Virus record (IMG/VR): IMGVR_UViG_3300015615_001160
Coordinates: 18,526 to 82,525 of that record
Length of the DNA: 64,000 nt
Origin: a virus
Lineage: Duplodnaviria > Heunggongvirae > Uroviricota > Caudoviricetes
Direction: 5' to 3' (one strand)
The notes beneath the pieces were generated by a model that made no database searches, was not told where the DNA came from, and worked only from the letters and a program-made list of their open reading frames with translations. This document shows, piece by piece, positions 25,871 through 56,974 of this stretch. Made by a program: the position numbers and the translations under genes. Each line of letters starts with the position of its first letter. Position 1 is the stretch's first letter.

Positions 25871-25918
25871 ACCGGTGCCCGGGATCACGCGTCCCAGGCA
25901 CCGGTTTCGTTTTAGGGC
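25871..25918 (+). terminator. Rho-independent terminator of the giant gene
   Basis: Perfect 9-bp stem accggtgcc...ggcaccggt with a structured loop, followed by ttcgtttt. It lies 30 nt after the stop codon. Confidence 0.7.
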
Positions 25919-25966: not shown

Positions 25967-26129
25967 CCTCCGCAGAGGCGAAAATGGTGGAACGGGCGCT
26001 CCGAGCCCGTTTGTGCAAGCCCTCTTCGCCGAAGGCGAACTGATCTGTGGGGAAGAGTGGCGGCTGCGCCGCCGGTGTGTTTCCAAACGGGCTCGGAGCG
26101 CCCGTTCCACCATCGTTTGACTGCGGAGG
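25967..26129. repeat. Long inverted repeat in the convergent intergenic region. A 30-bp perfect core plus a 9-bp outer match; the arms are separated by 71 nt
   Basis: Left arm 25967-26013: cctccgcag...atggtggaacgggcgctccgagcccgtttg. The right arm 26085-26129 is its reverse complement. Each arm also holds an internal acgggc/gcccgt palindrome. Confidence 0.7.
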
Positions 26130-26180: not shown

Positions 26181-26759
26181 TTAACCCAGGAAGTGCGCCC
26201 AGTCGGCTACGCCGTGCTGATTGCGGATGAACGCCGACGCGGGTTTCTCGCGCGGAGCGACCGGGTGCTGGTGCAGGCGCAGCCCGGCCTCGTGCGGCAG
26301 GCGGTCCGCTTTGGCGGAATTCACCTCGCGGTGCGCAAGCACGCAGTTCTCCCAGTTCGTCTTGCCGCCGCGGGAGCGGGGCACGACTTGGTCGATGTTG
26401 CCCTCCTTCGGCGAAAGCTTGCGGCCAGTGTATTGGCACACGCCGCCGTCGCGCTCCCAGATGCCGCGCATCCCAAAGCGCGGGCGGCGCATCGGCACGC
26501 GGGCGTAGTTCATCGCGATGACGACCGTCGGCACGCGCACTGGGCCGCGTGCGGTGTTTACTGCGTAGTCGCACTCCCGCACCGGCAGCGTGAGCCACGC
26601 ACTCCATTTCGTCGGCACAAACGCACCCTCGGAAATATCGAGCGCCGTGGCGGCGTCGGACGCCATCATGCAAAACGCCTCCGCGGGCGTCTTCACGTGG
26701 ATCGCCTGCCAATGCCGATTCAGCACCAGCACGGTCGTTTTGTTGAGGATGTTATTCAT
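26181..26759 (-). CDS. HNH endonuclease domain protein
   Basis: 192 aa. HNH core DQVVPRSRGGKTNWENCVLAHREVNSAKADR. It is the last gene of the minus-strand RtcB block and starts with MNN at 26757-26759. Confidence 0.7.
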   Translation of the reverse strand: MNNILNKTTVLVLNRHWQAIHVKTPAEAFCMMASDAATALDISEGAFVPTKWSAWLTLPVRECDYAVNTARGPVRVPTVVIAMNYARVPMRRPRFGMRGIWERDGGVCQYTGRKLSPKEGNIDQVVPRSRGGKTNWENCVLAHREVNSAKADRLPHEAGLRLHQHPVAPREKPASAFIRNQHGVADWAHFLG

Positions 26760-26870
26760 CGGAAAAAAGTTTAGCTAACAACTGATAGTCATAAGGTAGC
26801 GTGACCGCTTGGTGAATGGCAGCGCGCAGCGCTGCCATTCACCAATCACCGATCACACTTTACAAGTGTC

Positions 26871-28274
26871 TTAGTCTTCCGCGCGGTCACCCGCCGGACA
26901 CATCTTCACGAGTTTCGGGTCGAAGCGGCCGAGCACATCGACGAGGTCCGTCTGCGCCGACATCACTTGCGCGATGTCCTTGTAGACGCCCGGCACTTCG
27001 TCGAGGCCGGCGGAGAGCAGTTCCACGCCAGCGGCGGCGAGTTGTTTCTTCACCGCGCTCCACGTGAACGACTGCAATGCCTTGCTGCGGCTCATCACCC
27101 GGCCCGCGCCGTGCGACGCGCTGTGCAGCGACTCGGGCGAGCCCTTGCCGCGTACGACATAGCCCGGCGATGCCATGGAACCCGGGATAACACCCAGCAC
27201 TCCGGCGCCCGCCGGCGTCGCGCCCTTGCGGTGCACGACGACCTCGCGCTCTTCCCCATTCACGACATGCGTTTCTTTCCACGCGAAGTTGTGATGGTTT
27301 TCGATGTCGAGGATCACATGCCCACCGAGCTTTTTCGCGATGTGCCGGTGGATGAGTGCGTGGTTCGCCGCTGCGTAACGGCCCATCAAGTTCATCGCGG
27401 CCCAGTATTCCTGGCCGTCGGCGTCGTCGAGCGAGAGCCACGCGAGGTGCTTGAGTTCCTTCGGCAGGTGCTCGTGGCGGGCCATCGCGCGCTTGCTGTA
27501 GACTTCGCACACCTTCGCGCCGGTTCCGCGCGAGCCCGAGTGCGAGAGTAGCGCGAGATATTCTCCCGGCTCGAGGCCCAGGGTCTGTGCCTGCTCCGCA
27601 TCGACGGTGAACGCACCGAACTCGACGAAGTGGTTGCCACTTCCGCTCGTGCCGAGCTGCGACCACGCCTTGTCGCGCAGTTGCTTCGTCACGGGCGCCA
27701 CGGACCAGTCTTCGTCCATCACGTCGTGCTCGCGGCGCTGCTTGAACTGGCAGCCCATACCGAACCGCGTCTCGTCTTCGAGGATGTTCGCGAGCCGATC
27801 GCGCTGGCCGGCGAGGGTGCTCGCCTTGCGGTCATACACCGTCAGCTTCATGCGGCACGCGATGTCCACGCCGACGGCGTAAGGAATCACCGCGTTGTCG
27901 GTCGCGAGCACACCGCCGATCGGCAGGCCGTAGCCCACGTGCGCATCCGGCATCAACGCGCCCGCCACCGCGACCGGCAGCGCACACGCATTCGCCATTT
28001 GCTTCACCGCCTCGGCTTCGAGCCCTTCGCCCCACTGACGCCACGGCGCGAGTTCTGCGCGCGGCGTAAACGGCGGGCGATAGATCGCCCGCGCCAGCGG
28101 TGCCCGCAGCTCGTCGGCAAAGAAAGCCGTTGGATTGGCGACGATGTTGAAGATTTCGCCCTCCAGTAACGCGCCGTCATTTCCCCGCGCGATGAAGTTC
28201 TGGATGAACTCGTGCGCAACTTGGATCGGCCCGCCCATCGGCACGCCGAGGCGGATGAGGTCTTTGGTGTTCAT
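26871..28274 (-). CDS. rtcB: RtcB RNA ligase (joins 3'-phosphate/2',3'-cyclic phosphate to 5'-OH)
   Basis: RtcB family signatures MPDAHVGYGLPIGG, GSGNHF, SASHGAGR. Start chosen at MNTKDLIRLGVPMGG (ATG 28272-28274). An in-frame upstream ATG at 28307 would add 11 aa. Confidence 0.9.
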   Translation of the reverse strand: MNTKDLIRLGVPMGGPIQVAHEFIQNFIARGNDGALLEGEIFNIVANPTAFFADELRAPLARAIYRPPFTPRAELAPWRQWGEGLEAEAVKQMANACALPVAVAGALMPDAHVGYGLPIGGVLATDNAVIPYAVGVDIACRMKLTVYDRKASTLAGQRDRLANILEDETRFGMGCQFKQRREHDVMDEDWSVAPVTKQLRDKAWSQLGTSGSGNHFVEFGAFTVDAEQAQTLGLEPGEYLALLSHSGSRGTGAKVCEVYSKRAMARHEHLPKELKHLAWLSLDDADGQEYWAAMNLMGRYAAANHALIHRHIAKKLGGHVILDIENHHNFAWKETHVVNGEEREVVVHRKGATPAGAGVLGVIPGSMASPGYVVRGKGSPESLHSASHGAGRVMSRSKALQSFTWSAVKKQLAAAGVELLSAGLDEVPGVYKDIAQVMSAQTDLVDVLGRFDPKLVKMCPAGDRAED

Positions 28275-28408
28275 AGTGAGTTGGTTTGAAAATGTGCGTC
28301 GCCGCACGCGGACACAATGCGAGTGCGCAGCGGTGTTTGTTCTTTTTGTCGGAAAGTCTGCAGCCGGGAAGGGTTCATGCCCTCCCCGGCTGTACCACTA
28401 CTAGTTCC

Positions 28409-29218
28409 TCAATCGAGGAAGGCGACGTTCGCCATGGTGCGGGTGGTGTTCTCGGTGTTCATCCAGACTTGGTGCCAGCCATGCAGTGTGATGGTGGCGT
28501 GGTCCGGGTGCCGTATCGTGCCGCGCGCATAGACTTGCGCGTCACGTGTTCGGCGTTGCCAGCCCCAGTGGTTGGCTTCTGGCTGCTCCACGATGAGCTG
28601 CTTGTAGTGCTGGACTGTGATCCCATTCGGGAAACGCGCGCAGACATACACTTGCTCACCGCCAGTGCGGAACAGCTCTGCCACCCAGTGCGGCTTGCCA
28701 CCACCACCGCGGCTGATCGGCTCGTGACGATGCACGAGCTTCCCATCCACGTGCAGGCCTGGCACTGGCACGAAGAACCATTCACCCTGACGGATGAAGG
28801 CTCGGTTGTGACGCCGCACGCGTTGCCCGGGGTTCAAGCGAGCCTGATCCGCGGCTTCGCGAACCTTCGGCGGCAGCAGGGCGAGCTTCGCCTGCAATAC
28901 CGTCGAGGCACCGCCTGGCACCGCGGCCACGAACCATTCCCGCTCATCGTGACCACAGAGGAAGCGATCATTCGCTGCCGGTGTCTTGACGAGCAGAAGG
29001 AGGTGTCGGTCGTGTCGGTCGCACTGGAGCACATCCGCATCGAGGTGCGTTTCGCGCTGGGCGCTCAACTGCATCTCGAAAACCTGACCGCGTTTATCGG
29101 CGGCCAGGTCGATGGCATAGTCCGCACGTCGGCGGCTCCACGGTAGATTTTCTGGACGAACGATCCGGAACCGCGCGCCCATGTGGGCGAACTGGTTCGC
29201 GATCGATTTAGAGTTCAT
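28409..29218 (-). CDS. Hypothetical protein (about 270 aa) between rtcB and the nucleotidyltransferase gene
   Basis: Start chosen at MNSKSIANQF (29218). The longer ORF running to 29434 would overrun the tRNA-Lys-like gene and a hairpin. Confidence 0.5.
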   Translation of the reverse strand: MNSKSIANQFAHMGARFRIVRPENLPWSRRRADYAIDLAADKRGQVFEMQLSAQRETHLDADVLQCDRHDRHLLLLVKTPAANDRFLCGHDEREWFVAAVPGGASTVLQAKLALLPPKVREAADQARLNPGQRVRRHNRAFIRQGEWFFVPVPGLHVDGKLVHRHEPISRGGGGKPHWVAELFRTGGEQVYVCARFPNGITVQHYKQLIVEQPEANHWGWQRRTRDAQVYARGTIRHPDHATITLHGWHQVWMNTENTTRTMANVAFLD

Positions 29219-29230
29219 ATCTTGGAATTG

Positions 29231-29252
29231 GGTCGCGCGGCTTGGCGCGACC
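29231..29252. promoter_or_regulatory. Perfect 8-bp stem hairpin just upstream of the hypothetical gene start
   Basis: ggtcgcgc ggcttg gcgcgacc, followed on the plus strand by gattgcgttttctttcc. Confidence 0.3.
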
Positions 29253-29367
29253 GATTGCGTTTTCTTTCCGGGCCTTGCGAGCCCGAGACGACTTGATGCG
29301 GTAGTGGACAGACATTGGTTTTGATGGTGGTGGGTTGGTGAATTCGTGGCGTTGAAGACCACGATGT

Positions 29368-29439
29368 GAAAAAGTGAACCCGTAGGGACTTGCACCCTCC
29401 TCAGCCGCTTAAGAGGCGGCGGCTTCGCTCTCAAAGCTT
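29368..29439 (-). tRNA. tRNA-Lys(CTT)-like gene; non-canonical, no encoded CCA
   Basis: Minus-strand sense gaacccg aa gctt..aagc c gccgc ctcttaa gcggc .. gaggg tgcaagt cccta cgggttc a. Perfect 7-bp acceptor and 5-bp anticodon stem; loop cT-CTT-aa. T-loop is TGCAAGT (G55) and position 8 is A. A paralog with a TTT anticodon lies at 32518-32589. Confidence 0.55.
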
Positions 29440-29472
29440 CGGGTTCTTAAATTAAAGCAGTGGGGAGCGATG

Positions 29473-29513
29473 GCCCCGCCGGTGTTGCCCGATTGCAGTC
29501 ACCGGCGGGGCGT
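29473..29513 (-). terminator. Strong hairpin immediately after the nucleotidyltransferase stop codon (minus strand)
   Basis: 12-bp perfect GC-rich stem gccccgccggtg / caccggcggggc. It begins 8 nt past the TGA at 29521-29523. Confidence 0.5.
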
Positions 29514-29520
29514 CCTCCTC

Positions 29521-30297
29521 TCAAGCGGAGAGCGCGTAACGGCGGAAGAAGCTATTCAGCTCCTCGACGCTGCCTGCGGCGTCGTCGCGCTCGTTGAGCG
29601 CTTCGAGTCTTGGCAGTTCGGCCTCGATGAAGCGCGAGAGCACTTCGACCGGCGGCGCGACCGCCAGTTCGTCGCCGGCCTGTTTGCGCGCGATGAGTTC
29701 ATCGAGCGCGGCGCGCACGTCGGATTCTTCGAGTACACTCTCGACGAGTTGTGCGAAGAGCATGGGCACCTGGCCGAGTTGGCGCTCGATCCAGCGGCAC
29801 GCTAGCAGCGGTCGGAAGACGTAGAGATACTTCTTCAGGCTCACCATCTCGCGCCCGCGGAGGTAGTCGCGCCAGTTGCCGAAGGCCATGTGCAGGTAGT
29901 GGGCGAAGCAGCGCCGCTGCGAATAGAATTCCTCCGCGAGCGCGCCAAACTCGGCACTGAAGACCGGCTCGTGGCGATACACGATCGGTGACTTCAGCCA
30001 CTCGAGCAGCGGCGGGTTGCTCTTGCGGAGCAGGCGCAACGCCTTGCGCAGCTCCCAACCGCTGACGTCGAGATCGTCGGCGAGTGGGCGCTCGATCACG
30101 TCGCGCCGATCCTCGACCGAGAGATACCAGTCGCGCCGATGCACGTAGAGAAAGCGCACGTCGTAGTCGCTGTCGCGCGAGGCAAAGCCCCACGCACGGC
30201 TGCCGCTCTCGCACGCGAAGAGCACGCGGACGTTTCGCTCGGCCTCGACCTGAGCGAGCGCGTCGCGGACGCGCTGGAAAACTTCGTTCCCATTCAT
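29521..30297 (-). CDS. Predicted nucleotidyltransferase (Pol-beta/MNT superfamily) in the RtcB neighbourhood
   Basis: 258 aa. GS...D.D motif in VLFACESGSRAWGFASRDSDYDVRFLYV. A helical C-terminal domain follows. Confidence 0.65.
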   Translation of the reverse strand: MNGNEVFQRVRDALAQVEAERNVRVLFACESGSRAWGFASRDSDYDVRFLYVHRRDWYLSVEDRRDVIERPLADDLDVSGWELRKALRLLRKSNPPLLEWLKSPIVYRHEPVFSAEFGALAEEFYSQRRCFAHYLHMAFGNWRDYLRGREMVSLKKYLYVFRPLLACRWIERQLGQVPMLFAQLVESVLEESDVRAALDELIARKQAGDELAVAPPVEVLSRFIEAELPRLEALNERDDAAGSVEELNSFFRRYALSA

Positions 30298-30372
30298 GGG
30301 AACCTCCTTTCTGTTTGAGATGTGATTGGCGACGGGCGTCGCCGATGTTGTTGATCGCCTTGGCGTGCCTGC

Positions 30373-30900
30373 TTAGATGGGGAGCCGCACTTTTGCGTAG
30401 AGCAGGCCGTCGATGAATTCATCATCGCGGAAGTAGTATGCGCGCAATCGGCCTTCGTGCGTGTAGCCGGCCTTCTCCAGCACCCGAGCGGAAGCCGGGT
30501 TGCGTGCGAAGACATGGGCGTGCAACCGCACGAGGTTTAGCTCTCGGAAGGCCCATTCCGTCATCGCGTCGAGCGCTTCCGTGGCGATCCCGCGGCCCCA
30601 GAGTGTCTCGCCGAGCCAGTAGCCGATTTCCGCGGTATGCTGGCGCGCGGTTACACCGCTGGGGTTCACTTCGACGCCGATGCCACCGACGATCTGGTCG
30701 TCGATGGCGATGCCGAAGTTGGTTTCCGGATCCTGTTTAGTGGCAAAGTCGATCCACCATTCCGCATTCTGCAGCGAATAGGGATGGGGGATGTGTAACA
30801 TATTGCGCGCAACGCTGTAGCTGCCGATGTGCGTGGAAATCGACTCGGCGTCGCCGGGACGAAAGGAACGAATGGTGGATTTGGAGAGGGTGAGTTGCAT
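30373..30900 (-). CDS. GNAT family N-acetyltransferase (RimJ/RimL-like)
   Basis: 175 aa. IGYWLGETLWGRGIATEALDAMTEWAF ... ARNPASARVLEKAGYTHEGRLR matches Acetyltransf_3-type. Confidence 0.75.
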   Translation of the reverse strand: MQLTLSKSTIRSFRPGDAESISTHIGSYSVARNMLHIPHPYSLQNAEWWIDFATKQDPETNFGIAIDDQIVGGIGVEVNPSGVTARQHTAEIGYWLGETLWGRGIATEALDAMTEWAFRELNLVRLHAHVFARNPASARVLEKAGYTHEGRLRAYYFRDDEFIDGLLYAKVRLPI

Positions 30901-30930
30901 GGGGTGGATGGTGAAAGTTTCAGCCCGAAA

Positions 30931-30958
30931 CCCCGGTGGAGACAGAGATCCACCGGGG
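30931..30958. repeat. Palindromic (REP-like) element, copy 1
   Basis: ccccggtgga gacagaga tccaccgggg: a 10-bp perfect stem. It is near-identical in design to copy 2 at 31394. Confidence 0.5.
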
Positions 30959-31393
30959 TTGCGAGGTTACCGGATTGCAGCGCGAACCCGGTGTGCAAGT
31001 TCGGTCGGGCATGAAGTTCGGCGCCGGTGGAAGGGGTGATTTTTGGATTAGTACGATGGTTCGCGTGTTGATGGACGGATCATCAGCGTATCTCTCAGCA
31101 GGGCTCCGGGTCCGGCTCGCTCGCTCAGCAGAATCCGAAGCGGCACGCCCGCCAGCGATGTGCTGTGGGGCAACCGGTCGAACGGAGTTCCTTTGCGAGT
31201 ATGTCTCGCGATAGGCTGAGATCTCAGTCGAACAGCTCCGAGGAGGAAAACCCCGATGAGGATGACGCCATGACCCAGAATGGCTGGGTCGGGCATGGTG
31301 GGTGGGTGGGTTGGAAAATGAGCAAGCCCGCCCGATTGATCTCGGAAGGGATCGAGCGCGGAGAGCCGTGTGGGCGTTCGCGCGGAGGATCAC

Positions 31394-31458
31394 CCCGGCG
31401 GAGCGAGTTCTCCGCCGGGGCTTGTTCCTCCCTCGCAATTTTTTGTTTCACGTTTCGT
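31394..31458 (+). terminator. Palindromic element copy 2 plus a T-tract; a plus-strand rho-independent terminator-like structure
   Basis: ccccggcgga gcgagttc tccgccgggg followed by cttgttcctccctcgcaattttttgtttc. Confidence 0.4.
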
Positions 31459-32245
31459 CCGTCTCCGTTGCGGTTGGCTTGACGCCGCGCGTGTGGAGAG
31501 CGGGGAGCAGGGTCGACAGGTCGTTCATCACGAACGTCTGGCCTGCGGTGGACGCTTCGAGCGTTTGCAGGAAGCGGAGGGTGGCGAGTGCGGGCTGGCC
31601 TTCGATGAGGCGCGCGGCATTGGCGAGGTTGCGCAGCGCGGCGGATTCGGCGCGGGCGCGTTCGAGCGCGGCCTGGCCTTCCTGCTTCGCCTTGAGCACT
31701 TCGCTGAAGGCCTTGCGCAGTTCGCCCGGCAGCATCACATCGCGCACGTCGGCCGCGTGGACTTGCACGCCGACAGCTTCCGCTTGTGGCGCGATGAGTT
31801 CGCGGAGTTGCGCGCCGATGGCGACACGCTGCGTGAGCAGGGCTTCCATCGGCACTCCGGCAACGACGGTGCGAACGGCGGCCTGCGTGGCGTTGTAAAT
31901 GTGGGCCGCGTAGTTGTCCGCAGCCTGCACGCTCTTCGCCGCATCCACGATCTGCGTGGTGAGCACGACGCTGAGCTTCACGCCGACGTTGTCGGCGCTG
32001 AGCACTTCCTGGCCCGCGACCTGGAGGAGCGTCTTGCGGATGTCCACGGCGACGAGGCGGTAGTTGCGGCCCCAGCGGATGTGACGGCCCGCTGGCAGCG
32101 TGCTCACGAGCTGGCCTTCGTGGAAGAGCAGGCCCGCGTAGCCTTCGGTGACGATGAACTCGTGGTGGTAGCGAGTGCACGCAATATTAGTCACGAGCAA
32201 ACCGGCGCCAAGGAGAGCGACGATGAGAATATCTTGGGTGGTCAT
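31448..32245 (-). CDS. Band-7 / SPFH (stomatin-prohibitin) domain membrane protein
   Basis: 265 aa with an N-terminal TM segment (ILIVALLGAGLLVTNIA) followed by an SPFH domain. Band-7 proteins are recurrent partners of RtcB-type RNA repair operons. Confidence 0.8.
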   Translation of the reverse strand: MTTQDILIVALLGAGLLVTNIACTRYHHEFIVTEGYAGLLFHEGQLVSTLPAGRHIRWGRNYRLVAVDIRKTLLQVAGQEVLSADNVGVKLSVVLTTQIVDAAKSVQAADNYAAHIYNATQAAVRTVVAGVPMEALLTQRVAIGAQLRELIAPQAEAVGVQVHAADVRDVMLPGELRKAFSEVLKAKQEGQAALERARAESAALRNLANAARLIEGQPALATLRFLQTLEASTAGQTFVMNDLSTLLPALHTRGVKPTATETDET

Positions 32246-32278
32246 AGTGTGTGTTGGTTGGTGGTGGAAAGATTGCGA

Positions 32279-32292
32279 TCCGTGGCGGTGGC
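32279..32292. promoter_or_regulatory. Perfect 14-bp palindrome gcggtggccaccgc upstream of the band-7 start; a candidate operator
   Basis: Seen directly. It lies about 35-47 nt upstream of the minus-strand start at 32245. Confidence 0.3.
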
Positions 32293-32391
32293 CACCGCTT
32301 GTTCGCGGGCAGCGTGGCGTGAGCCGGCTGCGCAGGACGAAGTCGCGACTGCCTCTCGAGCAAGCTCGGGGCGGGTCACCGTCACGGATCG

Positions 32392-32420
32392 GTGGATGGA
32401 TGGGATTCGAACCCAGTCGG
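32392..32420 (-). other. tRNA 3'-end-like fragment with a canonical T-arm (GGGTTCGAATCCC) and no matching 5' acceptor strand
   Basis: Minus sense ...gactgggttcgaatcccatccatcca. No complementary acceptor strand was found within 120 nt. It may be an att-type remnant or a decayed unit. Confidence 0.3.
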
Positions 32421-32517
32421 CGGTGAGCCGATGACCAGCCGCCGGATGGTCGATGTGCAGGACCAGTCGCGGCGATGCCGCCTGGCTGCGGGTGTATTTT
32501 TCCGGCGGAAGAGGAAA

Positions 32518-32589
32518 TGAACCCGTAGGGACTTGCACCCTCCTCAGCCGCTTAAAAGGCGGCGGCTTCGCTCTCAAAGCTTCGGGTTC
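32518..32589 (-). tRNA. tRNA-Lys(TTT)-like; paralog of the 29368 unit
   Basis: Identical to the 29368 unit except the anticodon loop is cT-TTT-aa. Confidence 0.55.
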
Positions 32590-32594
32590 GGAAA

Positions 32595-32672
32595 TGGATA
32601 GTCGCGGCAGGATTTGCACCCGCACTGGCTGCGTTCTCGACGCAGTGCCTCTTCTCGTTGGGCTACGCGACC
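32595..32672 (-). tRNA. tRNA-like, Leu anticodon GAG, class-I architecture
   Basis: Acceptor ggtcgcg/cgcgact; anticodon stem ctgcg/cgcag with loop tcGAGaa (C33); T-arm gcggg TGCAAAT cctgc. Confidence 0.45.
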
Positions 32673-32753
32673 GTCGGTGATTTTGGAAATAGTCCTCCGG
32701 CATTGGGTGGCCGAAGGCCTGGAGCAAGTCTCGCGAAGCGAGACGCGTGGAAA

Positions 32754-32828
32754 GGCTCCCGTGGTGGGACTCGCACCCACTAGGACTCGTGTGAAAGACG
32801 AGACGCTCGGCTCTTTGCATTCACGGGC
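32754..32828 (-). tRNA. tRNA-Glu(TTC)-like
   Basis: Anticodon stem ctcgt/acgag with loop cT-TTC-ac; T-arm gtggg TGCGAGT cccac. Confidence 0.45.
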
Positions 32829-32840
32829 ATTTGCTGAAAG

Positions 32841-32931
32841 TGGCGGAACGCGGAGGGCATGCTCCCCAACCCGCAACGCGGATCGATCTCCTTAGCACGG
32901 AGTCCCGGCACGCTCGTCCGGTTCACGTTCC
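32841..32931 (-). tRNA. tRNA-Ser(GCT)-like, class II with a long variable arm
   Basis: Acceptor ggaacgt/gcgttcc + G + CCA; anticodon loop gT-GCT-aa; variable arm ccgc gtt gcgg; T-loop AGCATGC. Confidence 0.5.
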
Positions 32932-32937
32932 ACATCG

Positions 32938-33011
32938 TGCCCGCGGCGAGATTTGCACTCGCACTGTCCGAGGTTTGAGCTCGGTGGCTCTGCTCGTTGG
33001 CCTACGCGGGC
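32938..33011 (-). tRNA. tRNA-like, Leu anticodon CAA, class I
   Basis: Acceptor gcccgcg/cgcgggc perfect; anticodon stem ccgag/ctcgg with loop cT-CAA-ac; T-arm gcgag TGCAAAT ctcgc. Confidence 0.5.
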
Positions 33012-33022
33012 GTGGAAAAAAA

Positions 33023-33094
33023 TGCTCCCGGTCGGAGTCGCACCGACACTGCGCGGGGTTTAAGTCCGCTGCCTCTGCGTTGGGCTACGGGAGC
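33023..33094 (-). tRNA. tRNA-like, Leu anticodon TAA, class I
   Basis: Acceptor gctcccg/cgggagc perfect; loop cT-TAA-ac; T-arm gtcgg TGCGACT ccgac. Confidence 0.45.
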
Positions 33095-33103
33095 TTTGAA
33101 AAA

Positions 33104-33990
33104 TGGGACTGCGGGTTGAGACTAAACCCACAGGCATCATCTCCTTCGCGCGGATTATTCGAGGCTTGCGGCCTCTATTCCCGGCTTGTCCTCGGCGACT
33201 GACCCGAAAGTCACATCGACGAGCGATGACACGATTGCCTTTGTTAACGAGGTGGCATTTCCCCGTAGATGGTCAGCTACTCTACCTCCGTCCTACCGCC
33301 AGCCTTGCGGGCTGTGAGAGGCGCGACCCTCGACGTGCGGACTCGGGTAAACTTCGCGGGCCTTGCGGGCCGTGGAAGTCTCCATTGCCTTGCGGCTGAA
33401 GAATTAAATCGTTTTCGCTGACGACCGGCGGCGTCTTTGCATTTTTTTGGCGATGCAGGATTTCTCCTGCGACCTCCGGCTTTCGAAGCCGACGCTCTGT
33501 TCTGAGCTAATCGATAACCCACCACGATGTGCGCCGCCTGTCGTGCCGAATCCTTTTGGGACTCGATATGCGACACACCGTGTGACTTTCCCTTGCGGGT
33601 ACTCATCGTGTCCTGGCGATCGCGTCCGCCTCCTTGCCTTTTGGGCTCGGCAGCGTCCGCTTCCGCGCGACATGCAGCAGGCGCCTCGTTTGCGGCTTGG
33701 CGTCTACTGCTCCCCTTGTTCCCTCAACACTGGACGTTTTGCTGGAAAGGCACGCCTTGCGAAGGGGCGTTCCTGCTCCTACGGAGTTACCCTCGGAACA
33801 GTTTCCCTTTCCCGTCGTCATGTATACCTCGGCCGCATTTGACTGCGACAAGGCTATGGGACCTGGGTTTGCTTGAATGTCCTCGAGTGAACGAGGCGCG
33901 GGCGTGTGGGCCGTTTCCGCTTTTGGCCGTCTCGCGACGGTTTATCTTTCATCCCTTGCGGGACCTGGAGATCAAGCTCCCCAGTTTTTA
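33104..33990 (-). ncRNA. About 880-bp non-coding segment inside the array with a recurring CCTTGCGGG motif; candidate large structured RNA and/or decayed tRNA units
   Basis: No convincing ORF and no regular spacers. CCTTGCGG(G) occurs at 33304, 33361, 33385, 33590, 33764 and 33953. At least one tRNA-like unit (33448-33516) is embedded. Confidence 0.3.
33448..33516 (-). tRNA. tRNA-like unit with a good D-arm (gctc/gagc) and a T-loop-like anticodon loop ttCGAaa
   Basis: The acceptor is imperfect and the assignment is uncertain. Confidence 0.25.
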
Positions 33991-34018
33991 AATAGTGAAA
34001 TGGGTGATAGTAAGAAAG

Positions 34019-34095
34019 TGGTCCCGGCGGCAGGAGTTGCACCCGCACTGGCTCCGGTCTGAGCGGAGTGTCTCTGCTTGTTGGACTACGCCGGG
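34019..34095 (-). tRNA. tRNA-like, Leu anticodon CAG, class I
   Basis: Acceptor cccggcg/cgccggg perfect + A + CCA; anticodon stem ctccg/cggag with loop cT-CAG-ac; T-arm gcggg TGCAACT cctgc. Confidence 0.5.
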
Positions 34096-34104
34096 AAAAA
34101 GGAG

Positions 34105-34180
34105 TGGTGCTCTCGGCAGGAGTTTCGCCCGCAACCTCCGCGTTCGAAGCGCGGCACTCTAGACATTGAGCTACGAGAGC
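34105..34180 (-). tRNA. tRNA-Arg(TCG)-like
   Basis: Acceptor gctctcg/cgagagc; D-stem gctc/gagt; anticodon stem ccgcg/cgcgg with loop cT-TCG-aa; CCA encoded. Confidence 0.5.
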
Positions 34181-34191
34181 ATGGATGGAAA

Positions 34192-34268
34192 TGGCTGCCC
34201 CGGATGGATTCGCGCCATCAACCTCCCGGTTCAGAGCCGGGCGCTCTCGCTGTTTGAGCTACAGGGCA
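34192..34268 (-). tRNA. tRNA-Gln(CTG)-like
   Basis: D-stem gctc/gagc; anticodon stem cccgg/ccggg with loop cT-CTG-aa; T-arm gatgg CGCGAAT ccatc; disc G + CCA. Confidence 0.55.
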
Positions 34269-34273
34269 ACATG

Positions 34274-34345
34274 ATCCGCCAACCGGAGTTGCACCGGTCT
34301 CTCGCCGATACCAGCGGCGTGCGTCGCTCACAACGCTTTGGCGGA
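34274..34345 (-). tRNA. tRNA-Thr(GGT)-like
   Basis: Acceptor tccgcca/tggcgga perfect; D-stem gcgt/acgc; anticodon stem cgccg/cggcg with loop cT-GGT-at; T-arm accgg TGCAACT ccggt. Confidence 0.5.
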
Positions 34346-34355
34346 GTTTGAAATG

Positions 34356-34429
34356 ATCAGGCACCTCGGTGCTGCCCCGAGTATCTCGCCGATCCGAACG
34401 GCGCGGATTGCTGTCTTCCTCGTGCCTGA
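34356..34429 (-). tRNA. tRNA-Pro(CGG)-like
   Basis: Acceptor tcaggca/tgcctga perfect; anticodon stem cgccg/cggcg with loop tT-CGG-at; T-arm ctcgg GGCAGCA ccgag. Confidence 0.5.
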
Positions 34430-34431
34430 AT

Positions 34432-34572
34432 GAAATAACTGGAGCCACGGGGAATGCTCGCGCGGCAGCGCTTCGACACGAGTCGTGGAGCGCTGGCTGC
34501 ATAGCGGCAGGAGCCGCAATCGCACCCCGATCTGCGCAATGCCAATGCGTCGTCTGGCTATTGGACTATGGC
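34432..34572 (-). ncRNA. About 140-nt structured repeat. It has a nested-hairpin 5' half and a tRNA-like 3' half (possible Ala GGC loop). It is a paralog of the element at 35940-36080
   Basis: The ggagcgctggctgcat and caatcgcacc blocks are shared with the 35940 copy. There is a nested hairpin cagcgct...cgac acga gtcg...agcgctg. Confidence 0.3.
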
Positions 34573-34579
34573 CCCGACA

Positions 34580-34655
34580 TGGACGCGCGCCCCGGACTCG
34601 CACCGGGTAATTCGGTTTTGCAGACCGATGGTTCGACGGCTTTGCCTTGCGCGCG
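34580..34655 (-). tRNA. tRNA-Cys(GCA)-like
   Basis: Acceptor cgcgcgc/gcgcgcg; anticodon stem tcggt/accga with loop cT-GCA-aa; T-arm cccgg TGCGAGT ccggg; T + CCA. Confidence 0.5.
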
Positions 34656-34667
34656 TTTTTTTGTGAT

Positions 34668-34743
34668 GGGGGTGACCGTCGGGATTCGCACCCGAATCTT
34701 CTGGTTCACGGCCAGAAACTCTGACTCTTGAGCTACGGCCACA
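34668..34743 (-). tRNA. tRNA-His(GTG)-like
   Basis: Acceptor gtggccg/cggtcac (one G.U); anticodon stem tctgg/ccaga with loop cc-GTG-aa (C33); T-arm tcggg TGCGAAT cccga. Confidence 0.4.
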
Positions 34744-34766
34744 GCTTCTTCCTGTGTTGTGGAAAG

Positions 34767-34843
34767 TGGATCCTCCGGCCGGCGCTGCCCCGGCATGGTC
34801 TTCTTTACGAGAGAAGTGCATTGCTGGCCTCTGCCACGGAGGA
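34767..34843 (-). tRNA. tRNA-Thr(CGT)-like
   Basis: Acceptor tcctccg/cggagga perfect; anticodon stem cttct/agaag with loop cT-CGT-aa; T-arm gccgg GGCAGCG ccggc; T + CCA. Confidence 0.5.
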
Positions 34844-34853
34844 ACGGGATGAA

Positions 34854-34930
34854 TGGTGCTCCCGCGAGGACTTGCACCTCGAGCTTCCGCCTTCGCAGGG
34901 CAGCGTGCAGGACTCTTACACTTCGGGAGC
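34854..34930 (-). tRNA. tRNA-Arg(GCG)-like
   Basis: Acceptor gctcccg/cgggagc; anticodon stem ctgcc/ggcgg with loop cT-GCG-aa; T-arm cgagg TGCAAGT cctcg; A + CCA. Confidence 0.5.
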
Positions 34931-34939
34931 TAATGAAAA

Positions 34940-35014
34940 TGGTGCGCCATGCCGGTGCCGCCCCGGCGCTGTGTCTTTGGAAGAGACGCGTGCTCGCTGT
35001 TACACCAATGACGC
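34940..35014 (-). tRNA. tRNA-Gly(TCC)-like
   Basis: Acceptor gcgtcat/atggcgc; anticodon stem cgtct/agaca with loop cT-TCC-aa; T-arm gccgg GGCGGCA ccggc; A + CCA. Confidence 0.5.
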
Positions 35015-35024
35015 TTTGGAAAAA

Positions 35025-35099
35025 TGGTGGCTGCTTCCGGTATCGCGCCGGACTCCCCTCGGCTTCAGCGAGGTGCTAATCTATCTCAGCTACACAGCC
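35025..35099 (-). tRNA. tRNA-Phe(GAA)-like
   Basis: D-stem gctg/tagc; anticodon stem cctcg/cgagg with loop cT-GAA-gc; T-arm tccgg CGCGATA ccgga; A + CCA. Confidence 0.5.
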
Positions 35100-35153
35100 G
35101 TTCGACAGGCTCACGGCCTGCGGCCCTTCGACGAAGTTTCGTCTTTGGGCAAA
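35100..35153. other. Short non-tRNA spacer with two small hairpins (ggcc tgc ggcc; gacga agtt tcgtc followed by tttggg)
   Basis: It does not fold as a cloverleaf. It may be an intra-array processing or terminator-like element. Confidence 0.3.
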
Positions 35154-35154
35154 G

Positions 35155-35228
35155 TGGTCCCTCCGCGCGGTATCGCGCCGCGGTCTCTCGCTTATCGGGC
35201 GAGGGCTCTGCTTTTGAGCTACGGAGGG
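35155..35228 (-). tRNA. tRNA-Ile(GAT)-like
   Basis: Acceptor ccctccg/cggaggg perfect; D-arm gctc aaaagca gagc; anticodon stem ctcgc/gcgag with loop cc-GAT-aa (C33); T-arm cgcgg CGCGATA ccgcg; A + CCA. Confidence 0.5.
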
Positions 35229-35237
35229 TTTTGGAAA

Positions 35238-35311
35238 TGGTCGCTCGAGGTGGTAACGCTCCACCGTTTGTCGGATGTCGGCCGGCCGTTCTGCTTTTGA
35301 ACTATCGAGCG
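35238..35311 (-). tRNA. tRNA-Val(GAC)-like
   Basis: Acceptor cgctcga/tcgagcg + A + CCA; D-arm gttc aaaagca gaac; loop cc-GAC-at; T-arm ggtgg AGCGTTA ccacc. Paralog of the next unit, with compensatory stem changes. Confidence 0.5.
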
Positions 35312-35322
35312 ATGCGAAAGAA

Positions 35323-35396
35323 TGGTCGCCCGACGTGGTAACGCTCCACGGTCTTCCGGATGTGAGCCGGCCGTTCTCCTTTTGAACTATCAGGCG
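35323..35396 (-). tRNA. tRNA-Val(CAC)-like
   Basis: Acceptor cgcctga/tcgggcg; T-stem cgtgg/ccacg (compensatory relative to ggtgg/ccacc in the previous unit); loop cT-CAC-at. Confidence 0.5.
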
Positions 35397-35409
35397 AAAA
35401 TGAAAATGA

Positions 35410-35481
35410 TACCCGCGCCCGGTAATGCTCCGGGGTTTTCTGATGAAGAATCAGCCGTGCTGACGATTGCACCATGCGGGT
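35410..35481 (-). tRNA. tRNA-like unit, anticodon region ambiguous (possibly CTT)
   Basis: D-stem gtgc/gcac perfect; T-arm cccgg AGCATTA ccggg. The anticodon stem and loop can be drawn two ways (ttCTTca with a 4-bp stem, or a 5-nt loop). Confidence 0.3.
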
Positions 35482-35489
35482 TTTTGAAA

Positions 35490-35564
35490 TGGCTCCTCCC
35501 CTTGGCATCGCACCAAGCTCACACCGCTTAACAGGCGGGCCGCACACTCTGTGCGTTGAGAGGA
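35490..35564 (-). tRNA. tRNA-Asn(GTT)-like
   Basis: Acceptor tcctctc/gggagga; D-stem cgca/tgcg; loop cT-GTT-aa; T-arm cttgg TGCGATG ccaag; G + CCA. Confidence 0.45.
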
Positions 35565-35575
35565 ATGTGTCGTTT

Positions 35576-35650
35576 TACTCCCGGCAGGAGTTGCACCTGC
35601 GTAGTTCCATTTAGAAGATGGATGCCTATGTACTGCTCGGCCACGGGAGC
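35576..35650 (-). tRNA. tRNA-Arg(TCT)-like
   Basis: Anticodon stem tccat/atgga perfect with loop cT-TCT-aa; T-arm gcagg TGCAACT cctgc; no CCA. Confidence 0.45.
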
Positions 35651-35661
35651 GTGGATAGAAA

Positions 35662-35736
35662 GGGTCGCGCGCCTCGGTGCTGCCCCGAGTGTCTCCTCGT
35701 CCCAAGCGAGGCGGGTTGCTGTCTCCCTCGCGCGCG
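35662..35736 (-). tRNA. tRNA-Pro(TGG)-like
   Basis: Acceptor cgcgcgc/gcgcgcg; anticodon stem cctcg/cgagg with loop cT-TGG-ga; T-arm ctcgg GGCAGCA ccgag. Confidence 0.45.
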
Positions 35737-35759
35737 TCACGGTGTCGTGTCGTGTGAAA

Positions 35760-35836
35760 TGGCGGCCTGTGCGGGCTTTGCTCCCGCGCCCTTCCGCTCG
35801 ACAGGCGGCTGCTCTTCGTGGCTGAGCTAACAGGCC
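35760..35836 (-). tRNA. tRNA-Asp(GTC)-like
   Basis: Acceptor ggcctgt/acaggcc perfect; D-stem gctc/gagc; loop cT-GTC-ga; T-arm gcggg AGCAAAG cccgc; G + CCA. Confidence 0.5.
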
Positions 35837-35846
35837 ATGGTGAAAT

Positions 35847-35935
35847 TGGTGGGTTGTGTCGGTAATGCTCCGACGCTGGTCCGGCTGGACATCCGCTTTA
35901 CAGGCGGCTCGCGATCTTTACGTGACTAACAACCC
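35847..35935 (-). tRNA. tRNA-Tyr(GTA)-like, class II
   Basis: Acceptor gggttgt/acaaccc perfect + A + CCA; loop cT-GTA-aa; variable-arm hairpin gtcc agcc ggac; T-arm gtcgg AGCATTA ccgac. Confidence 0.5.
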
Positions 35936-35939
35936 GAAA

Positions 35940-36160
35940 TGGTTGCGGGACGTGGAATGCGTGGCGCGGTAGCGCCGTTGCTGGACGACGCGGAGCGCTG
36001 GCTGCATGGACGCCGGAGCGTCAATCGCACCACGATACGAGGGCGTATGAAACTCTCTTGGTTTTGCCGCTCCGGCGGCTATGCGAAGTGCGCTCCGCGT
36101 CCATGGTGTGAACGTGCTTGCGCGCGAGTGCATTCAACCTTCCCGCGATTGAATGGTGAA
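35940..36160 (-). ncRNA. Structured repeat(s) not resolved as tRNA; includes the paralog of the 34432 element
   Basis: Shares ggagcgctggctgcat...caatcgcacc with 34432-34572. Contains hairpins ggcgc ggta gcgcc and gcgctccg/cggagcgc. Confidence 0.3.
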
Positions 36161-36161
36161 A

Positions 36162-36236
36162 TGGTGGACCGCCACGGCTTTGCACCGTGCTCTTCCGCTT
36201 GCGAGGCGAATGACCTCCTGAATGATCGAGCGGCCC
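36162..36236 (-). tRNA. tRNA-Ala(CGC)-like
   Basis: Acceptor gggccgc/gcggtcc; anticodon stem ttcgc/gcgga with loop cT-CGC-aa; T-arm cacgg TGCAAAG ccgtg; A + CCA. Confidence 0.45.
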
Positions 36237-36244
36237 AGGAAAAT

Positions 36245-36321
36245 TGGTAGCGGGGGCCGGATTTGAACCGGCGAATTGACGGCTTATGAGGCCGTTGCCT
36301 TAACCACTTGGCGACCCCGCA
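36245..36321 (-). tRNA. tRNA-Met(CAT); the most canonical unit (GG in the D-loop, TTCAAAT T-loop), with a 1:72 mismatch (initiator-like)
   Basis: gcggggtcgccaaGTGGTTAAggca acggc cT-CAT-aa gccgt ... gccgg TTCAAAT ccggc ccccgct A CCA. Confidence 0.6.
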
Positions 36322-36333
36322 GTCTGTGGAAAG

Positions 36334-36408
36334 TGGCACAGCGTCTCGGTGCTGCCCCGAGCCCGCGGAGTTTTGGAGACTCTGCTGCGCGAGCTGGCGC
36401 CCGCTGTG
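36334..36408 (-). tRNA. tRNA-like unit (acceptor and T-arm clear; body unresolved)
   Basis: Acceptor cacagcg/cgctgtg; T-arm ctcgg GGCAGCA ccgag. Confidence 0.3.
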
Positions 36409-36426
36409 TTTCACGATTGGAAAAAT

Positions 36427-36500
36427 TGGTGCGGTCAGCCGGACTTGCACCGGCATCCTCTGATTGGCACTCAGACATCCTTCTCTTGAACGATGACCGC
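36427..36500 (-). tRNA. tRNA-Gly(GCC)-like
   Basis: Acceptor gcggtca/tgaccgc perfect + A + CCA; anticodon stem tctga/tcaga with loop gT-GCC-aa; T-arm gccgg TGCAAGT ccggc. Confidence 0.5.
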
Positions 36501-44310: not shown

Positions 44311-44961
44311 ATGAGCAGCTCGAAAACGCCTGTCGTCCTCCTAGTCAGAGTATCCACAGTTCGGCAAGAGACCTCACGCCAGATTTCGGAGTTGGAGGCT
44401 TACGCTGCCAGCAAGGGCTACGAGGTCGTCGAACTGTGCAAGGAGACGATCTCGGGCCGGGCTGACGAGGACGACCGCCACGGGTTGAAGCGAGCCGAAG
44501 CACTCGCCCGCGCTGGAGCGATCAAGAAAGTCCTCGTCCACGAGGTTTCCCGTTTGGCCCGGCGGAACAGCATCACACATCGGTTCGTTGAGGTGTTGGA
44601 GGAATGCGGAGTTTCGCTCTACTGGCACGCGCAGGGGATTGAAACCCTCCTGCCGAGCGGCAAGCGAAACCCAGCAGCGGGCATCATGCTCGCGCTGCTC
44701 GCCGAAATGGCGCGCGGGGAGGTTGAGACGCTGCGGGAGCGGATCAAGTCCGGGTTGGCCGAAGCTCGGCGCAAAGGGGTGAGGCTGGGCAGGCCGGAGG
44801 GCACATCGCTCGACCGGGACATCTTCCTTCAAAAGCACAAGGACATCGCACGATGGCTCAAGGCTGGTCAGTCGATCCGCAACGCTGCCAAGATCACGGG
44901 GAAGGGTATCTCGACGGTGCAGCGCGTGAAGACGGCGCTCGCCGAGCATGCATGCGCATAG
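44311..44961 (+). CDS. Small serine recombinase (resolvase/invertase family)
   Basis: N-terminal VVLLVRVSTVRQ with the catalytic Ser, and a C-terminal HTH. Confidence 0.8.
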   Translation: MSSSKTPVVLLVRVSTVRQETSRQISELEAYAASKGYEVVELCKETISGRADEDDRHGLKRAEALARAGAIKKVLVHEVSRLARRNSITHRFVEVLEECGVSLYWHAQGIETLLPSGKRNPAAGIMLALLAEMARGEVETLRERIKSGLAEARRKGVRLGRPEGTSLDRDIFLQKHKDIARWLKAGQSIRNAAKITGKGISTVQRVKTALAEHACA

Positions 44962-55912: not shown

Positions 55913-56974
55913 ATGAACATCACAATTCACACGCAACTTCCCGCCTGTCCGAAGGCGGATACACTCGACCAGACAATCTCCATTCTATCATCGAGCCAGC
56001 AGTGGGAGCAGTTGTCTGTGGCGGTCGCTTATTCGTCGTTGGCGGGGGTCGCTCGGCTCCACGAGGTTGTGTATACGGCTCACCCCGACGCATCATTTCG
56101 TTGGCTGCTTGGTCTCGACGACTATGTGACCCAGCCGGGTGCAATCGACTTCTGTTGTTCGATCAAGAACGCAGATGTGCGGGTGTATTCGTCCAAGCGT
56201 CCGAATACACGCTTTCATCCAAAAGTGCTGCTTTTTGATGCTCCCAAAAAGGGGGCGGTATCATCGATGCTAATCGGTTCAGCCAACTTGACCTTTGCAG
56301 CACTGAACCGAAACTGCGAGGCAGTCGCGGTCATCGAAGCGCAGCGCCGAGCGGAGCGAATGGTGATGCGCGCCCGCTTCGAATCACTCTGGTCTTTGGG
56401 CGCCGCGCCCACTGGAAAGACCTTGTCAGATTACAAGCAGCAATTTGAAAAGCTCCGAAAATCGCGGTCGTTTCTCTTGGACGTGGAGTCTGAGCCACCT
56501 GCAACGCCAAAAACTATACTGCATTCTGACTCGGCTCAGATCAATCCGGGAACCGCCACTGTATGCTGGATTGAAGTCGGCAAGAACACTGCGATGGGCA
56601 GAGAGCTTGAAGTAAAAGGAGAGCAAGCGTGGTTCTTTGGACTTGAACCCACTGGTGGCACTGCCGCTTTCCGTGATTTCCTTGTCTCCAGCGGAGACAC
56701 AGTGCCATTGCGCTTAAAGTATCAGGGCAATGCGATGTGGCGCTTACAACTGCGCGCAGGAGTTCCAGAGGTCGATGCAGGGCTTCGACCGGTAATCAAC
56801 GGAAAACTTGGCAGAAGTCCATATGTGGCTGTTTTTAAGCGGACGCAAACCAAAGGCCTGTTCACGCTTTCGTTCCCGCGGCGAGATTCAAGAGCATTTG
56901 AAGCTATCCGTAAACAGTCAGAGAAAACCGGGACGATTGGGAGCACCGCTGCCCGCGAATATGGCTGGTATTGA
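55913..56974 (+). CDS. PLD-family (HKD) nuclease, NgoFVII/Nuc-like
   Basis: RFHPKVLLFD........MLIGSANLT is a single HxK(x4)D(x6)GSxN motif. Confidence 0.7.
   Translation: MNITIHTQLPACPKADTLDQTISILSSSQQWEQLSVAVAYSSLAGVARLHEVVYTAHPDASFRWLLGLDDYVTQPGAIDFCCSIKNADVRVYSSKRPNTRFHPKVLLFDAPKKGAVSSMLIGSANLTFAALNRNCEAVAVIEAQRRAERMVMRARFESLWSLGAAPTGKTLSDYKQQFEKLRKSRSFLLDVESEPPATPKTILHSDSAQINPGTATVCWIEVGKNTAMGRELEVKGEQAWFFGLEPTGGTAAFRDFLVSSGDTVPLRLKYQGNAMWRLQLRAGVPEVDAGLRPVINGKLGRSPYVAVFKRTQTKGLFTLSFPRRDSRAFEAIRKQSEKTGTIGSTAAREYGWY

Follow-up and report, generated by a model that had tools for sequence, protein, structure and literature searches.

The question raised by this locus is whether a set of RNA-repair genes and the tRNA genes beside it act together, and what such a combination would do. 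The locus lies in a 64,000-nucleotide stretch of the IMG/VR record IMGVR_UViG_3300015615_001160 (positions 18,526 to 82,525; hereafter the window, with coordinates counted from its first letter), where genes for proteins and tRNAs follow one another without interruption on the minus strand from 26181 to 36500. A first-pass annotation of this DNA had proposed that HNH, RtcB, nucleotidyltransferase, GNAT and Band-7 genes form, with the neighboring tRNAs, a single module that supplies and repairs tRNAs. That proposal is well supported by the recurrence of the genes and by the literature on L-arrays and the TrcR regulon, and the block is probably the verrucomicrobial form, consolidated into one string, of a known stress module for the replacement and repair of tRNAs. 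The idea is not new; an accessory tRNA operon coupled to RtcB-centred repair has already been published. What is new here is the presence of GOLLD RNA within an Rtc-type repair string, an uncharacterised protein family (X) beside RtcB, and a tRNA elbow with G55 and without the GG pair of the D-loop.

Protein families in the 64-kb window were assigned with Pfam, using its cut-offs, and with NCBIfam, PADLOC and PHROGs. The block reads Band-7, GNAT, RlaP, tRNA-Lys(CUU), X, RtcB, HNH, and comprises the following features (aa, amino acids):

31448-32245, minus strand: SPFH/Band-7 protein, slipin/HflK-like, 265 aa (Band_7 E 2.2e-30; weak NCBIfam match to HflK)
30373-30900, minus strand: GNAT acetyltransferase, RimJ/RimL-like Acetyltransf_3, 175 aa (Pfam E 5.8e-29; weak NCBIfam matches of RimL/RimJ type)
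29521-30297, minus strand: RlaP, RNA-ligase-associated Pol-beta nucleotidyltransferase, 258 aa (PF10127; nucleotidyltransferase in PHROGs)
29374-29446, minus strand: tRNA-Lys(CUU) between RlaP and X (ARAGORN; 81-nt repeat, 95% identity, family D6)
28409-29218, minus strand: protein X, 269 aa, a conserved uncharacterised family, between RlaP and RtcB
26871-28274, minus strand: RtcB 3'-phosphate/5'-OH RNA ligase, 467 aa (Pfam PF01139)
26181-26759, minus strand: HNH nuclease, 192 aa (Pfam HNH_4 27.3 bits and HNH 24.2 bits, both above cut-offs)

The Pfam search confirmed each of the five families that had been named from the sequence, in place and on the minus strand. RtcB matches PF01139 with 293.8 bits, where the cut-off is 27 (E 3.5e-87), in an open reading frame (ORF) of 26871-28307; its likely start is the ATG at 28274, which gives a protein of 467 aa, in line with homologues of 464-473 aa. 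In a phmmer alignment to P. horikoshii RtcB (4dwr), the equivalents of D95, C98, H203, H234, H329 and H404 are retained, and the predicted active site is intact, with both the metal-binding Asp/Cys/His residues and the His that accepts guanosine monophosphate (GMP) kept. The nucleotidyltransferase aligns with profile positions 3-249 of 249 in PF10127 (308.3 bits, E 5.7e-92), and its translation shows the Pol-beta GS...DxD motif: ESGSRAWGFASRDSDYD. It is located 1.2 kb upstream of RtcB on the same strand, with a tRNA and X in between, and RtcB in turn sits 3.2 kb downstream of Band-7, also on the same strand.

The HNH protein consists of a beta-rich N-terminal domain followed by a Cas9/IscB-like HNH domain (NCBIfam Cas9d/Cas9/IscB HNH region), and its homologues number 4562. 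Identity is 57-81% among verrucomicrobial loci and 57-92% across orders, a conservation equal to that of RtcB. A tblastn search with this protein leads to the HNH gene adjoining the Anabaena trn array, to mycobacterial array plasmids and to tRNA-rich phages; the gene directly upstream of the Anabaena trn array (pCC7120delta, NC_003273) is 41% identical (E 2e-13). By homology, the window HNH is a member of a tRNA-array-associated family found in cyanobacteria, mycobacteria and tRNA-rich phages, and it may serve in counter-attack, processing or homing. The first-pass annotation had named housekeeping assignments of the nucleotidyltransferase and HNH proteins as the outcome that would speak against it; the former proved to be RlaP, a family of RNA repair, and the latter falls in the array-linked family just described. 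Assignment of the block to a defence system was considered and rejected, the PADLOC matches being only weak and confined to the HNH domain.

The protein genes were described initially as lying immediately downstream of a co-oriented tRNA-like array. The co-orientation holds, but the block is not merely downstream: tRNA-Lys(CUU) stands between RlaP and X, so that protein genes and tRNA genes are interleaved. X, GOLLD, this internal tRNA and the non-canonical shape of the tRNAs had all gone unreported. The tRNA-Lys(CUU) differs from the last tRNA of the array by a single base, which is in the anticodon. The array is delimited as follows:

32518-36500, minus strand: tRNA array of L-array type, 24 genes in 4 kb (permissive ARAGORN and Rfam)
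32518-32589, minus strand: tRNA-Lys(UUU), last tRNA of the array, 272 nt upstream of the Band-7 start codon (ARAGORN and Rfam)

In transcription order the array reads Gly-GCC, Met-CAU, Ala-CGC, Tyr-GUA, Asp-GUC, Arg-UCU, Asn-GUU, Lys-CUU, Val-CAC, Val-GAC, Ile-GAU, Phe-GAA, Gly-UCC, Arg-GCG, His-GUG, Cys-GCA, Thr-GGU, Gln-CUG, Arg-UCG, Leu-CAG, then GOLLD, and finally Leu-UAA, Leu-CAA, Leu-GAG and Lys-UUU, and it covers 16 amino acids. The number of tRNAs depends on the method: ARAGORN with default settings gives 14 on the minus strand, Rfam gives 19 matches, and permissive ARAGORN combined with Rfam gives the 24 array genes, among which the Cys and Arg-UCG anticodons were taken from folds of matches made by Rfam only. 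A plus-strand tRNA-Arg(TCG) called by ARAGORN at 34175-34250 overlaps the minus-strand tRNA-Gln(CUG) and was discarded as most likely an antisense artefact. Spacer repeats with T-arm-like motifs (families D5 and D7; 34341-34425, 35649-35733, 34758-34792 and 36325-36359) suggest that additional, degenerate tRNA-like units lie among the called tRNAs.

The recurrence of this arrangement was examined in 166 X-encoding loci fetched from genomes and metagenomes, which are cited below by L numbers. Locus counts refer to the 61 loci of the Planctomycetes-Verrucomicrobia-Chlamydiae (PVC) group with at least 4 kb on each side of X, and an array is taken as at least three co-oriented tRNAs within 8 kb. 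Arrays are present in 35 of these 61 loci, and 23 loci have at least eight co-oriented tRNAs. Nearby tRNAs are on the strand of X in 367 of 372 cases, with five opposite, and the same is true for 137 of 138 homologues of the five proteins, a shared orientation that shows the arrangement not to be a product of chance. RtcB occurs in 24 of the 35 array loci as against 7 of the 26 array-less ones; for HNH the corresponding numbers are 21/35 and 1/26.

The order of genes also recurs. In Verrucomicrobiota, RlaP and Band-7 precede X, and RtcB typically follows, often with the same HNH family after it. Strings of X-RtcB(-HNH) or RlaP-X-RtcB are found in Luteolibacter, Phragmitibacter, Chthoniobacter and metagenomic contigs (RlaP-X-RtcB in L002, L003, L005 and L007-L010), and homologues of Ro60 are found inside many modules. 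The array of a Chthoniobacter metagenome-assembled genome (MAG; L008) ends in Leu-CAG, Leu-UAA, Leu-CAA, Leu-GAG and Lys-UUU like that of the window, but without GOLLD. In Chthoniobacter flavus (L007), Band-7 is followed at some distance by RlaP-X-RtcB-HNH, and a single tRNA-Lys(UUU) (L007 1613-1684) precedes Band-7, whereas the sister MAG of C. flavus has 20 tRNAs. This comparison indicates that the array is accessory and that the cassette of protein genes is the more stable part. Two loci, L003 (the same as L097, 1-12361) and L005, carry a longer string comprising RtcR, Ro60, two YrlA-like RNAs (55-64 bits, just below the gathering score of 69), a first RtcB (RtcB1), RtcA and GNAT, followed by Band-7-RlaP-X and a second RtcB (RtcB2). 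In both, GNAT follows RtcA, and the two RtcB paralogues in the string are only ~28% identical.

The tRNAs of the window array have an unusual elbow. Their T-loops mostly read N-G55-C56-R57-A58 (TGCRA) in place of U-U-C-R-A, as in the verrucomicrobial loci, their D-loops are without G18-G19, and the tRNA-Leu genes are of class I length (72-77 nt) without a long variable arm. The features of canonical elongator tRNAs (U54-U55-C56 with G18-G19; class II Leu) are thus for the most part missing from the array. Across loci, 533 of 657 well-paired tRNAs are of the G55 type and 422 of these 533 are without GG, while GG is present in 51 of 53 U55 tRNAs, so that G55 covaries with GG loss (Fisher p = 4e-29). 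The tRNAs retain their identity elements (A73 in Leu, G3:U70 in Ala, G-1/C73 in His) and have complete acceptor and T stems, and 478 of the 533 G55-type genes encode CCA; the array tRNAs are apparently functional and chargeable. Unlinked or opposite-strand tRNAs of the same loci are canonical, and at L076 a module-type tRNA-Phe(GAA) coexists with a canonical one.

The G55 elbow was considered as a general trait of L-arrays and rejected as such for the comparators examined: the Anabaena array, a GOLLD-bearing Mycolicibacterium array and the tRNAs of phage Mx1 are canonical at these positions. No description of a G55/GG-less elbow variant was found in the literature searched. The G55/GG-less tRNAs, which number in the hundreds, may constitute a natural, orthogonal-looking tRNA pool. 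As a separate observation, short tRNA-Leu genes (74-78 nt) are also found in the Anabaena L-array (L087, pCC7120delta 3251-5416) and beside the HNH gene of Myxococcus phage Mx1 (L170 11911-12886), and their D-arms resemble the verrucomicrobial ones, which hints at a common ancestry of these arrays.

Within the array, between Leu-CAG and Leu-UAA, lies the GOLLD RNA, with these features:

33113-33583, minus strand: GOLLD RNA, conserved 3' domain, RF02032 (Rfam)
33447-33516, minus strand: tRNA-like element in the GOLLD linker region (Rfam tRNA 38.7 bits, within the GOLLD match)
33133-33109, minus strand: terminator-like hairpin at the GOLLD 3' end (hairpin scan)

The match reaches 165.4 bits, above the gathering score of 150 (E 2.5e-45), and spans model positions 1-416 of 416, with the pseudoknot aligned. 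Conservation with L003 reaches ~33993 upstream, about 400 nt beyond the Rfam match (nhmmer, query 27-906), and the full RNA is probably ~880 nt long, extending to ~33993. GOLLD is also detected at the Rfam threshold in L003 (176 bits), L078 (164 bits) and L061 (152.7 bits), and a profile built from these copies adds L060, L158, L038 and L085, so that it recurs in at least eight PVC loci. Every copy is co-oriented and, except in L003, lies within an array near X; L003 has no tRNA array, and there GOLLD stands between GNAT and Band-7 of the Rtc-type string.

GOLLD shows 84% identity over 883 nt between the window and L003; in nucleotide comparisons the protein genes on either side reach 71-81% and the spacer next to it ~50%. 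Compensatory changes affect 40 of 103 predicted pairs, a small sample drawn from only four verrucomicrobial copies. An identity above that of the flanks, together with these changes, shows that GOLLD is maintained in this setting by selection; purifying selection acts on it here. We know of no function established for GOLLD since 2009, even after the nanocage structures obtained by cryogenic electron microscopy in 2025. The literature search returned no paper that couples GOLLD with RtcB, Ro60 or RNA repair. Its occurrence in the same string as RtcB, RlaP and Band-7, and with Ro60 and Y RNA in sister loci, steers work on GOLLD toward RNA damage and repair, and not only toward phage biology.

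Protein X has 5412 homologues, which reduce to 1491 representatives of 50%-identity clusters. A 100%-identical entry exists on a 260-kb contig of a JGI metagenome, and the nearest named relative is that of Chthoniobacter flavus Ellin428, at 78% identity. Searches with Pfam, NCBIfam, PADLOC, PHROGs and a PDB sequence profile returned nothing for X, which was also not found among 50,697 phage and 72,556 plasmid records. The AlphaFold model is confident (predicted local distance difference test, 89.7; predicted template modelling score, 0.83) and shows a two-lobed, beta-rich protein, a fold that fits no solved structure; a Foldseek search against BFVD found one unnamed viral protein with a low TM-score (0.37). 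A Gly-rich loop, RGGGGKPH, and numerous invariant His, Asp, Glu and Lys residues suggest that X is an enzyme. In close relatives it is immediately upstream of RtcB. A further link, to Pnkp/Hen1-type repair, was dropped as anecdotal: in Limnoglobus roseus (L068 4751-10807) X divergently adjoins Hen1 (PF12623), an R2K ATP-grasp protein and a Pnkp-sized ORF, an arrangement seen at this one locus and at none of the other fetched loci.

The position of X is of interest with regard to the chemistry of its neighbors. On RNAs with damaged 3' ends, RlaP extends the end by one or two nucleotides, and according to its authors a further, as yet unidentified step must come before ligation of such ends by RtcB (PMC12776372). 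X is a candidate for this step, which would reconcile the chemistry of RlaP with that of RtcB. In the mechanism proposed here, the unit would be transcribed as one or a few long precursors, from which tRNA-processing enzymes would cut out tRNAs, GOLLD and mRNAs. By analogy with Anabaena, it would be silent in normal growth and induced upon damage to translation or tRNA, when the array would provide replacement or decoy tRNAs. RtcB would re-seal tRNA halves with 2',3'-cyclic-phosphate or 3'-phosphate and 5'-OH ends, RlaP would restore nucleotides lost from trimmed 3' ends, and X, as an enzyme or cofactor of the same pathway, could make it possible for RtcB to ligate the products of RlaP. The remaining parts, GNAT, HNH, and Band-7 together with the tRNA beside it, would have accessory or regulatory roles.

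A more ambitious form of this proposal, which we consider quite unlikely, makes GOLLD, the elbow-altered tRNAs and X parts of a dedicated apparatus for the reserve and repair of tRNAs. GOLLD would store, shield or scaffold special tRNAs or tRNA halves for Ro60, Band-7, RlaP and RtcB, and X would convert the RlaP-extended 3'-OH ends for RtcB. If true, this would provide a first function for GOLLD and a new enzyme fold in RNA repair. Experiments are feasible in Chthoniobacter flavus Ellin428, a culturable organism that has the cassette.

Co-transcription of the block is plausible from the signals around it, of which the relevant hairpins are the following:

25871-25905, minus strand: strong hairpin of terminator type, with a 14-bp stem (10 GC pairs) and a T-rich tail, 276 nt past the HNH stop codon
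31393-31420: GC-rich 11-bp hairpin directly after the Band-7 stop, with no T-run on the minus strand

Hairpin scans found no strong minus-strand terminator between Band-7 and HNH, and the hairpin at 25871-25905 is the sole strong minus-strand candidate downstream of the block. Between the HNH stop and the convergent end of a giant ORF, a long inverted repeat (25985-26110, arms of ~30 nt) is followed by this hairpin; the two together could be a bidirectional terminator or a structured element.

Several observations weigh against a single repair module. A 547-nt gap and the GC-rich hairpin part Band-7 from GNAT, and there could be two or more transcription units. A sigma-70 promoter scan of the window came out empty, neither the sigma-54 motif TGGCAC-N5-TTGCW (at most one mismatch) nor RtcR was found in the window, and both co-transcription and inducibility are inferred only. 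The position of GNAT differs among loci. HNH tracks arrays rather than RtcB, which fits a selfish homing role as well, and X in Planctomycetota mostly occurs without the module partners. With no recognisable catalytic fold in X, the role proposed for it is guesswork. Finally, for this organism, seen here through a 64-kb window of its genome, the array tRNAs can be called supernumerary only presumptively.

Among other explanations, the main rival is that the array is selfish mobile cargo: a largely cryptic array, with GOLLD, spread by an HNH homing endonuclease, which would have settled next to repair genes, or taken them along, on repeated occasions, and whose adjacency to them would be devoid of functional meaning. 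The association of HNH with arrays (21/35 against 1/26), the presence or absence of the array among close relatives (L007 and L008), the existence of HNH relatives in phage and plasmid arrays and of tandem HNH duplicates, the treatment of the array-linked HNH as a homing endonuclease in the literature, and the resolvase, integrase and restriction-type genes that lie 8-22 kb past the array in a lower-GC stretch all speak for such cargo. It does not fit as well with protein genes that are strictly co-oriented and interleaved with tRNAs (Lys-CUU in the window; X inside arrays in many loci), or with tRNAs that keep their identity elements. An HNH conserved at 57-92% across orders, like RtcB, is unusual for a decaying homing gene, and in Anabaena homologous kinds of genes are co-regulated with the array although unlinked to it. 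On balance selfish cargo is unlikely, though it deserves to be kept in view. The tandem duplicates themselves occur in L050, L060, L061 and L074 (Verrucomicrobiaceae/Prosthecobacter-type), with copies ~60% identical to the window HNH.

A prophage or phage remnant, in which the block would be an auxiliary tRNA and RNA-repair region that counters host anticodon nucleases, is very unlikely. GOLLD has been described as phage- or prophage-encoded near tRNA islands (PMC12286853), RtcB, RlaP and HNH match PHROG families, an integrase is located at 50262-51470, and phage Mx1 has an HNH homologue among tRNAs, with TROVE and Pth genes. However, the window ORFs that were tested yielded no gene for phage structure or replication, and the phage location of GOLLD was thus not encountered here. 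X is missing from the phage and plasmid records searched, the arrays of phages and plasmids that were examined showed no tRNAs of the G55 type, and the neighbors of related modules are housekeeping genes (ileS and suf in L001, rpmH-rnpA-yidC in L002, fusA in L003). An ordinary housekeeping tRNA operon that happens to precede unrelated genes is scarcely credible: bacterial tRNA genes commonly cluster and the array does cover 16 amino acids, but its tRNAs are non-canonical (G55, no G18G19, short Leu) beside canonical unlinked tRNAs in related loci, the array is missing from C. flavus at the same locus, and the gene partners recur.

Beyond the block, a plus-strand ORF of 8595 aa (54-25841) takes up 40% of the window. 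It is highly repetitive, with a guanine-plus-cytosine (GC) content of 66-68%, and by eye its repeats read as autotransporter-type beta-strand repeats and its end as a PEP-CTERM-like tail (VPEPGS..., a hydrophobic stretch, RRR), which fits Verrucomicrobiota, here a bacterium of soil type. On the other side, past the array, ExoD is followed by the lower-GC stretch (38800-59000), whose genes include a serine resolvase (44311-44961), a tyrosine integrase with DUF6900 (50262-51470), an SNF2-type helicase (51911-55240), a DNA methylase (56808-58853) and several ORFs without a family. The stretch probably represents an island of mobile or defence genes next to the array; the module appears to border a variable island, and carriage on a mobile element is no more than suggested.

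A stress module that replaces and repairs tRNAs, the reading preferred here, may be compared with several known systems. The classical rtcR / rsr-yrlBA-rtcBA operon of Salmonella and E. coli (PMC7790460) has RtcB in common with the block as a core enzyme. Homologues of RtcR, RtcA and Ro60 were not found in the window, which does not have the composition of an RtcR-regulated rtcBA operon, and the window RtcB is only ~28% identical to the RtcR-linked paralogue RtcB1. In L003 and L005, Band-7-RlaP-X-RtcB2 directly follows RtcR / Ro60-YrlA-YrlA-RtcB1-RtcA.

A closer counterpart is the group of Band-7 / b7a-tRNA / RtcB systems, which Burroughs and Aravind reportedly set out in Nucleic Acids Research (NAR) in 2016, along with RlaP as a ligase-associated nucleotidyltransferase. 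RtcB adjoining a Band-7 protein and a "band 7-associated tRNA" is mentioned as described in bioRxiv 10.1101/312249, and the naming of RlaP by Burroughs and Aravind is cited in PMC7824862 and PMC12776372. The window likewise has Band-7 with a co-oriented tRNA upstream, RtcB nearby and RlaP in the string. It differs in that one tRNA-like gene there corresponds to an array of 24 genes and GOLLD here, and in that X is added beside RtcB, as well as HNH and GNAT; Ro60/YrlA may replace or accompany the system (L003, L005).

L-arrays, reported in Verrucomicrobia and Planctomycetes by Santamaria-Gomez et al. (PMC8421152), spread by horizontal transfer; their tRNAs are aminoacylated in vivo, and translational stress induces them. 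An HNH gene and rtcB are linked to these arrays and share their regulation, and this HNH is treated there as a homing endonuclease. Both the closely spaced, co-oriented run of tRNAs and the array-linked HNH by which L-arrays are recognised are present in the window, and patchy distribution is seen in one pair, in which C. flavus lacks the array at the corresponding locus and the sister MAG has it. The trn operon of Anabaena sp. PCC 7120 shares with the window a long co-oriented array, the HNH family alongside it and short tRNA-Leu. The Anabaena TrcR regulon includes the trn array, rtcB, two HNH genes, GNATs and a slipin/Band-7 gene (PMC10272220). There, rtcB, GNAT and slipin/Band-7 belong to the regulon but are unlinked, whereas in the window they are physically joined in one string; TrcR-type regulation is a feature of Anabaena, and no such regulation is known for the window module. 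The elbows of the Anabaena L-array are canonical in contrast to the G55, GG-less tRNAs of the window, which also adds GOLLD, RlaP and X.

GOLLD itself forms a 10- to 14-mer nanocage and is found near tRNA islands of phages and prophages (PMC12286853). An embedded tRNA is a known feature of this RNA, and mycobacterial tRNA arrays with GOLLD also carry HNH (PMC6582537; PMC12990946). The GOLLD of phages, prophages and Mycobacterium is therefore like that of the window in its location within a tRNA array, in its embedded tRNA-like element and in the presence of HNH in the cluster, but here it is set in a chromosomal Verrucomicrobiota context and in one string with RtcB, RlaP and Band-7 (and Ro60).

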